The notes: generated by a model from the letters alone, not told the origin. A stretch of 64,000 nucleotides of DNA from Leptonemataceae bacterium (GCA_965227295.1 OZ245742.1:2976001-3040000), one strand, 5' to 3'. Shown: positions 12,254-13,231, numbered from the stretch's first letter. Made by a program: numbers and translations.

Positions 12254-13216
12254 CACAATTCCGCAACTTACTTCATGTTTCTCACGGCAACGCAACGAAC
12301 CGCAACTCTTGAACTACCGGAAACGCGCGGGTAGTTCGCACACGCCCCGATTCGTGGTGTAAGTAGCGGCCAGTGTACATTAAGGCTTTTATGGGTACGG
12401 CTGGTTCCAGCTGACGAGCGGAGGTCATGCCGGGGATTTTGGTAAGGCGCACCGGAACGGCGTCTTCGCCGTGAGGAACGCTGCGGGAGCTGAGTCACAA
12501 ACCAGCGTCCGGGTCGAGGCGGACTATCTTAACAAAACGACATACCACAACTCCCGCTCAGCCGTAGCCATAAAGATCCCTTCACAATTCCGCAACTTAC
12601 TTCATGTTTCTCGCGGCAACGCAACGAACCGCAACTCTTGAACTACCGGAAACGCGCGGGTAGTTCGCACACGCCCCGAATCCTGGTGTAAGTAGCGGCC
12701 AGTGTACATTAAGGCTTTTATGGGTACGGCTGGTTCCAGCTAACGAGCGGAGGTCATGCCGGGGATTTTGGTAAGGCGCACCGGAACGGCGTCTTCGCCG
12801 TGAGGAACGCTGCGGGAGCTGAGTCTCACAACCAGCGTCCGGGTCGAGGCGGACTATCTTAACAAAACGACATACCACAACTCCCGCTCAGCTGTAGCCA
12901 TCAAAACCCCTTCACAATTCCGCAACTTACTTCATATTTTTTGCGGCAAAGGCAACGAAACGCGGCTCTTGAACTACCGGAAATGTTTCCTTCGTTCGAG
13001 CACGCTCCGAATCGTGGTGTAAGTAGCGGCCAGTGTACATTAAGGCTTTTATGGGTACGGCTGGTTCCAGCTAACGAGCGGAGGTCATGCCGGGGATTTT
13101 GGTAAGGCGCACCGGAACGGCGTCTTCGCCGTGAGGAACGCTGCGGGAGCTGAGTCACAAACCAGCGTCCGGGTCGAGTCGGACTATCTTAACAAAACGA
13201 CATACCACAACTCCCG
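12254..13216 (+). repeat. Tandem array 2 of the ~330-bp repeat (partial unit, units at 12492 and 12821, and a unit at 13152 cut at 13216)
   Basis: Same conserved blocks; near-identical units at 329-331 bp period. Confidence 0.95.
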
Positions 13217-13231
13217 TTGTGTAAAGAGAAG
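13206..13231. other. Left attachment site (attL): core CACAACTCCCG followed by terminal inverted repeat TTGTGTAAAGAGAAG
   Basis: 11-bp direct repeat of 25920-25930; 13217-13231 is the inverted complement of 25911-25925 region (14/15 match). Confidence 0.85.

Follow-up and report, generated by a model that had tools for sequence, protein, structure and literature searches.

Positions 13206-13231 are attL, the left attachment site of an island of 12,714 bp. The best overall explanation, which we consider probable, is that this is an integrative island moved by its own Trp-type tyrosine recombinase through a lox-like attP. Coordinates without a contig name refer to the window, a stretch of 64,000 nucleotides from a Leptonemataceae bacterium (GCA_965227295.1 OZ245742.1:2976001-3040000). 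The position of the attachment site is clear to the single base, because intact copies of the target repeat adjoin the island, and a sister island in the same genome repeats the layout. The result is a clean, internally controlled case of a cargo island, here with a gene of polymorphic-toxin type, finding a harmless home.

Boundaries and attachment sites

The island (13217-25930, one copy of the core included) is flanked by an 11-bp direct repeat, CACAACTCCCG. The left copy is followed directly by TTGTGTAAAGAGAAG; at the right end the second copy (25920-25930) is directly preceded by CTTTTCTTTA. Both end-specific strings are single-copy in the genome. Deletion of 13217-25930 rejoins position 330 of a tandemly repeated unit to position 1. 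The empty target proposed in the initial annotation, CATACCACAA-CTCCCG-CTCAGCC, is a real sequence: it is present, uninterrupted, at two adjacent unit junctions immediately to the left of the island, at 12546 and 12876. As these intact neighbouring junctions serve as an internal control, the boundaries are fixed to a single base. The features are collected in Table 1.

Table 1 Features of the island and of the interrupted repeat array
Feature	Position	Strand	Evidence or remarks
Left part of interrupted ~330-bp repeat array, 2.9 units	12254..13216	+	Tandem Repeats Finder period 329, 94% matches; blast; island at last unit junction
attL copy of 11-bp identity block CACAACTCCCG	13206..13216	+	Proposed overlap region: last 6 bp, CTCCCG (13211-13216); dyad centre 3 bp before block end
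Integrase-proximal attP core arm TTGTGTAAAGAGAAG	13217..13231	+	Inverted match to 25910-25924, 14/15
15-nt leader motif AGTAAATATAGTAAG	13230..13244	+	Identical in paralogous island; 2 copies in genome, each just inside island left end
Perfect 15-bp subterminal inverted repeat, left copy	13274..13288	+	Directly upstream of integrase ATG; partner 25777-25791
Tyrosine recombinase, 335 aa from conserved ATG	13291..14298	+	PF00589, 50.9 bits (cut-off 27.1); start in ORF list is GTG 13255
Backbone genes, 257 aa, 113 aa and 87 aa	14323..15719	+	Common to paralogous island; 257-aa pair 51% identity
LuxR/GerE-type HTH regulator, cargo	16497..17039	-	PF00196, 4e-9
1843-aa protein, pretoxin-HINT domain and C-terminal tail (polymorphic-toxin architecture), then overlapping 142-aa ORF	17199..23155	+	PF07591, 2.7e-16, residues 1453-1573
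Cro/C1-type HTH protein, cargo or regulator	24071..24556	+	PF01381, PF12844
22-nt block identical in both islands	25753..25774	+	172 nt (this island) and 169 nt (paralogue) before 6-bp core
15-bp subterminal inverted repeat, right copy	25777..25791	+
Integrase-distal attP core arm CTTTTCTTTACACAA	25910..25924	+
attR copy of 11-bp identity block	25920..25930	+
Rest of interrupted unit, unit positions 1-146, array end	25931..26077	+	Blast of one unit

Joining the two ends by script gave a dyad with 15-bp arms, one mismatch and the 6-bp spacer CTCCCG, exactly as first described. The 80-nt joined sequence was shuffled 1000 times (mononucleotide shuffling) and the score of this dyad was never reached. 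The best-scoring reading has 16-bp arms, with one mismatch, around TCCC. This is the same dyad, since the first C and last G of CTCCCG pair as well, and the strictly asymmetric part of the spacer is TCCC only. The dyad centre falls in the middle of CTCCCG, with 3 bp of the identity block to its right. The lox/dif-like architecture that had been suggested is thereby borne out, the joined ends being inverted arms about a short asymmetric centre. A spacer of 6 bp is the best guess from the sequence, and the identity would permit crossover anywhere within the 11-bp block.

The restored attB, by contrast with attP, lacks dyad symmetry (997/1000 shuffles score no lower). When the 10 nt on either side of the core were compared by hand, attB matched attP at 7/10 positions on the left and 2/10 on the right, against a chance expectation of 2.5/10 for an arm; the binomial probability is about 0.02 for at least 6/10 and about 0.004 for at least 7/10. 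The earlier description of the target as a half-site that resembles the left arm only is in agreement with these counts.

Two sequencing runs of one study contain the island, as judged from Logan contigs. A 12,763-nt unitig spans 13187-25949 at a depth of 196, with flanking contigs at about 177-216. No contig of the two runs joins 13216 to 25931 or 25930 to 13217; assembled contigs drop rare forms, so this is uninformative on excision. Skip and go-back joints that do occur in the contigs are read as other copies of the repeat, from the inserted letters that they carry. In the second run the island is present at about 10x with two single-base differences (20706 C>A and 21401 A>G) within 13000-26400, so a closely related strain in another sample also carries it. 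The two same-genus genomes, G019 and G020, have neither the integrase nor synteny with this region (flanking genes 71-74% identical in DNA), and for this reason they provide no orthologous empty site.

The target repeat

The target is the conserved junction core of a noncoding tandem repeat of ~330 bp. The initial annotation had overlooked how common CACAACTCCCG is: the window has seven occurrences, where 0.04 would be expected, and the whole genome of 5.94 Mb has 134. When the 134 contexts were read by eye, 124 lay at repeat-unit junctions, 8 were unrelated and 2 were the island's own junctions. Only the copy described here is occupied, and about 124 other junctions with the identical 11-mer are empty. 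The family comprises 112 arrays and 332 blast matches, ~64 kb in all or 1.1% of the genome. Blast of one unit located three arrays in the window: 8756-10578, the interrupted array at 12254-13216 that resumes at 25931-26077, and 28358-29337.

The units are 80-100% alike and are conserved along their full length, with the junction core among the most conserved blocks. The repeat was considered as a coding sequence and this was ruled out, as the consensus has stops in 6/6 frames and lacks codon periodicity. No Rfam family matched, whether by gathering score or with E relaxed to 1. No match to the repeat was found in the 41 other genomes of the family (E <=1e-6), and in G019 and G020 only diverged relatives, ~70 nt long, of the junction region were found. 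Single-sequence folds gave z = -2.3 for the + strand and -1.2 for the - strand. RNAalifold on 52 units was weak (-19.7), a pairwise covariation scan was uninformative and the one long helix of the minimum-energy fold showed no clear covariation. The repeat family is lineage-specific, makes up ~1% of the genome and matches no known RNA family. For the island it amounts to more than 100 equivalent, gene-free landing sites.

Some further features of the repeat were observed. Each unit contains a promoter-like TTCACA-16-CATATT. Optional insert modules of 38-93 nt, mostly hairpin-like, are found at fixed unit positions, and one stem shows a compensatory change. One such module, of ~60 bp with a perfect 12-bp stem-loop, lies at 9157-9222, exactly between CACAA and CTCCCG, so that its insertion point is the point at which the island is inserted. 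The ~60-bp module directly follows CACAA in 6 other genomic copies (e.g. C1:5667434 and C1:3255739), 7 with the copy in the window; that CTCCCG follows the module directly is demonstrated for the window copy only.

The recombinase and its relatives

The start of the integrase was placed at ATG 13291 because the N-terminus MSACCM is common to it, to the related protein P0002 and to the integrase of the paralogous island. In addition to the Pfam match the protein matches the phrog_1 integrase (3.5e-17). In an alignment of 14 sequences (the integrase and 13 relatives) R170, K200, H260, R263, W287 and Y297 are invariant, and from their motif context we take these to be the catalytic R-K-H-R-(H/W)-Y set. 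The tryptophan previously noticed at the H/W position is thus a trait of the clade, as W287 is present in 14/14 sequences.

An AF2 model (mean pLDDT 83) has residues 1-27 disordered, with pLDDT below 50, and a helical core-binding domain from about residue 54 that is followed by the catalytic domain. The best Foldseek matches were XerA, Cre-lox complexes, Tn1549 Int, XerH and the core of lambda Int, those to Cre, XerA and XerH extending over the full length. In sequence, archaeal XerA (E 1e-6) is the nearest protein of solved structure. The model suggests a two-domain protein (core-binding and catalytic, CB+CAT) that lacks a folded arm-binding domain, and a short N-terminal DNA-binding element is possible.

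The clade is rare: a search of 1.84 billion representative proteins gave 5 matches at <=1e-30 and 88 at <=1e-10, and a word-indexed search of 5.8 billion proteins returned the integrase itself and one relative, P0002 (50-51% identity), which is known as a protein sequence only. Within the order, 3/156 genomes gave a match at <=1e-20, namely this genome and two with matches at 25-28% identity. A search with a 5-sequence alignment gave one match, from Anaerolineales, at 23% identity. None of the 54 pattern matches from an integrase search of genome contigs was confirmed, nor was any of the 188 that a 2-sequence alignment search gave in metagenome contigs. The leader-motif pattern had 0 matches in genome contigs. 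A degenerate attP-like pattern was found at 10 viral and 77 metagenome contig loci, and tblastn detected an integrase relative within 2.5 kb at 0/87 of them.

Gene content of the island

The island begins with a backbone of four genes, encoding the integrase and proteins of 257, 113 and 87 aa. Pfam gave no match for the 257-aa and 113-aa genes and PHROGs gave none for all three; an Atlas look-up of the 257-aa protein returned weak, sub-threshold leads. In the cargo, the 142-aa ORF that overlaps the end of the gene for the 1843-aa protein is likely, by position only, to be its immunity gene. Several other ORFs of the island belong to no family. Near the right end, at 24649-25706, there are three consecutive ORFs (123, 112 and 139 aa) that by eye look like paralogues and have in common the motif R-G-F/Y-x-R-S/T-G-x-D, with no family match. 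Outside the island, at 279-6371 of the window, there is a gene for a 2030-aa signalling protein with Ser/Thr kinase, AAA_16 ATPase, GAF, PAS, Hpt and histidine-kinase ATPase domains.

Besides the core arms, both ends of the island carry conserved elements. More leader motifs are common to the two islands in the stretch from AGTAAATATAGTAAG to the ATG. The 22-nt block near the right end resembles a ribosome-binding site and ATG, and in the window island a copy of the 15-bp subterminal inverted repeat then follows. This inverted repeat, which was not found in the paralogous island, is a candidate control element. Together with the 22-nt block it may serve for control or, in the circle, allow read-through across attP. 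No sigma-70-like promoter was predicted by a promoter scan, either for the integrase or at the right end. The 15-bp inverted repeat and the conserved end blocks are also possible accessory sites, a hint that the system is perhaps less simple than lox.

A paralogous island

The genome encodes two integrases of this family. The second, 31% identical to the first, belongs to a paralogous island of 17.8 kb at G000:C1:4208448-4226252 (loci L015 and L016). Both islands are single copy and each represents one insertion event. They have the four-gene left-end backbone in common, and the cargo is different, that of the paralogue including phage-tail-repeat, LysM and sigma-factor genes. The paralogue interrupts one copy of a second family of intergenic repeats (blast, 122 matches), ~220 bp beyond the SpoU methylase gene that follows cysS. 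Its left flank tracks an intact copy of that repeat to position 273 and the match restarts, 17.8 kb further on, at position 259. Two other positions for its ends were considered and rejected: a right end at the 11-bp repeat GCAATTGCGTA is ruled out as the second-family repeat resumes ~0.8 kb further on, and an end at a 13-bp repeat would enclose cysS and the SpoU methylase gene, this 13-bp repeat being simply another copy of the second family.

In the attP of the paralogue, CTCCGC is flanked by 10-bp arms with two mismatches; read in another way, the site is a perfect 7-bp inverted repeat with copies 12 bp apart. This dyad alone is marginal (39/500 shuffles equal it). Its identity block, 7 bp long, stops where the CTCCGC core stops on the right, with the dyad centre at an offset of -3.0 from the block end, as in the window island. 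The centre offset, a CTCC-type core and an identity that goes no further right than the core thus all recur. Beside the core, attB of the paralogue matches attP at 6/10 positions on the left and 0/10 on the right (counted by hand). Judged from these aligned sites, the half-site attB is reproducible and of the same polarity in both islands, since the paralogue repeats the left-arm-only likeness. The motifs TTACRCA/TGYGTAA are present in both islands, at a spacing of 8 bp in the window island vs 12 bp in the paralogue, which would be awkward if exactly these bases were the contacts.

Alternative explanations

The alternative that survives best, and which we nevertheless regard as improbable, is that the joined ends are a lox/dif-like site for the resolution or cyclisation of a former plasmid or phage-like replicon. 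Integration into the repeat would then be an occasional pseudo-site event, of the kind known for phage P1, which integrates occasionally at the pseudo-site loxB. In keeping with this reading, the arms are nearly symmetric, the two-domain enzyme is Cre/Xer-like with Trp in the H/W position, and the chromosomal site is poorly matched on one side; the paralogue, for its part, has phage-tail-like, LysM and sigma-factor genes. Two different islands are both integrated, however, each in a high-copy repeat and at a site with the core and left-arm bases, which argues against occasional events. In addition, the Pfam and PHROG scans recognised no replication gene on the island, and a genome search found no intact joined-end site elsewhere in the genome.

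It is very unlikely that the island is a cut-and-paste transposon, with the 15-bp ends as terminal inverted repeats, CTCCCG as a 6-bp target-site duplication and the integrase as cargo or resolvase. Inverted ends with a 6-bp direct repeat are formally the expected remnant of such an element, and transposition predicts the same empty site as site-specific recombination. The difference lies in CACAA: this additional match of the flank to the far end of the island would have to be a coincidence of about 1 in 1000. The same arrangement is seen in the paralogue, where identity again extends leftwards from the dyad centre, into one arm only, and the integrase is again at the extreme left end. Both islands, moreover, are single copy. 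No transposase family, and no recombinase family other than that of the integrase, was found among the island ORFs scanned (12 by Pfam and 12 by PHROGs), several of which have no family.

The least likely possibility is that the ~330-bp units are integron-like cassettes of this recombinase family with CACAA|CTCCCG as the cassette junction: the units are head-to-tail, the junction core is among their most conserved blocks and the optional hairpin module of ~60 bp directly follows CACAA, but the arrays are seldom bounded at the junction (13/112 start at unit position <=10 and 14/112 end at >=320, the usual ends being near positions 91-120 and 241-270), single-match copies (28/112 arrays, mostly unit positions ~100-245) are mostly without a junction, each junction holds 5 bp of one arm only, the genome has two integrases of the family and no more, and adjacent units are often near-identical, as tandem duplication gives, where a cassette array would have diverse contents bounded at the recombination point.

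Proposed mechanism and directionality

For an integrative island with its own recombinase the following scheme is proposed. The island would exist as a circle in which the joined ends form the lox-like attP, with two inverted core arms of 15-16 bp about CTCCCG. The two-domain Trp-type recombinase, encoded ~75 bp inside the left end, would bind these arms, so that the symmetric attP is well bound by two protomers. The repeat junction would bind one protomer through CACAA and the core, and a fourth could be kept on the unrelated right arm of attB by protein-protein contacts and cooperative binding in the synapse. Cleavage would flank CTCCCG, and strand exchange would take place across these central 6 bp, which are identical in the partners, the chromosomal site supplying the same 6 bp and the CACAA of the left arm.

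The length of the overlap can be considered from the two islands together. An even-length overlap centred on the dyad would fit both. An overlap of 6 bp would be the only one so centred to lie wholly within both identity blocks, since a centred 8-bp overlap would lead to one mismatch in the window island and two in the paralogue. A 7-bp overlap displaced by one base to the left would be identical in both islands yet off-centre. The shortness of the identity block is itself uninformative on the minimal target, lying as it does within a conserved repeat of ~330 bp, and with only two insertions, one per island, the required length of flank is not derivable.

The initial annotation had also raised the idea that the unequal sites could make integration directional. 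Recombination of attP with attB would give two hybrid sites, each with one good arm, and attB would be the poorest site of all. In the case of lox66 and lox71, hybrid sites reportedly recombine well while the doubly altered site is said to be a poor substrate. By this analogy the asymmetry would favour excision over locked integration, because each product keeps one good arm and attB is poorest. Retention of the island would then depend on control of integrase expression or on loss of the circle, rather than on the asymmetry of the sites.

A more general proposal would be that this Trp-type two-domain clade may integrate a symmetric attP at a 6-bp overlap and a few arm bases (7-11 bp of identity in the two islands) with no arm-type sites; we consider this rather unlikely. 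If true, specificity would lie mostly in the overlap and could be retargeted by six base changes, and high-copy repeats would be arrays of natural landing pads. Should the one-armed target requirement prove real, the enzyme might be a small integrase that needs no accessory factors and has a short, programmable core; this is a possibility only, and its value as an engineering tool is speculation.

Comparison with known systems

A close parallel in architecture is with Cre/loxP and Flp/FRT. Like Cre, the integrase has the two-domain CB+CAT organisation, with a TM of about 0.5 in Foldseek comparisons to Cre-lox complexes. Cre and Flp also carry Trp in place of the second His, and both kinds of site have near-perfect inverted arms (13-16 bp) arranged about a short asymmetric centre. 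Unlike Cre, which is only 15-18% identical to it in sequence, the integrase probably uses a spacer of 6 bp, whereas that of loxP is 8 bp. The partner of attP is, furthermore, a chromosomal site with one partial arm and the centre and not a second palindrome.

The site also resembles dif, which has inverted arms about a 6-bp centre, and XerA and XerH are among the best matches in both sequence and fold. In contrast to Xer/dif, the island supplies its own recombinase and site, and it targets a multi-copy repeat instead of one site at the terminus.

Some insertion sequences, such as the REP-targeting IS elements, are directed to intergenic repeats; these elements are small and transposase-driven. 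Both islands resemble them in landing safely in a high-copy repeat free of genes, and the window island is different in being a cargo island of 12.7 kb with a tyrosine recombinase.

Two-domain 'autonomous' tyrosine recombinases are described as working on core-type sites alone (PMC2817482). The integrase, as modelled, would fit this class in its domain organisation, although both partner sites of such enzymes are the same inverted-arm site and here attB has no dyad and is matched in one arm, in the paralogue too. The same paper describes the attB of CTnDOT as having conserved core sequence on one side only (PMC2817482), and to that extent CTnDOT is a precedent for the one-sided attB of the islands. 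There are two differences: unlike IntDOT, the island integrase has no predicted folded N-terminal domain, and in both islands the whole 6-bp centre is identical in the two partners.

Phage mv4 provides a caution. In the mv4 work, which included selection from a library of randomised attB, the core-attP and attB reportedly appeared atypical until degeneracy was allowed, when 7-bp inverted core sites about a 7-bp exchange region emerged, so the arm that is apparently missing from attB here may be a degenerate one. Unlike the island integrase as modelled, mv4 Int is a heterobivalent integrase of the Tn916 family with arm sites and a tRNA gene as target. With regard to lambda-type features, the island integrase has no folded N-terminal domain; one 15-bp subterminal inverted repeat and the conserved end blocks are present, and no repeated arm-type motif was established in the island.

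Set beside these systems, the element is a familiar type of integrative island, with a simple tyrosine recombinase as its probable means of movement. It is modestly unusual in its rare Trp-type clade, in its near-perfect symmetric attP and one-armed attB, and in that both islands have high-copy repeats as their targets.
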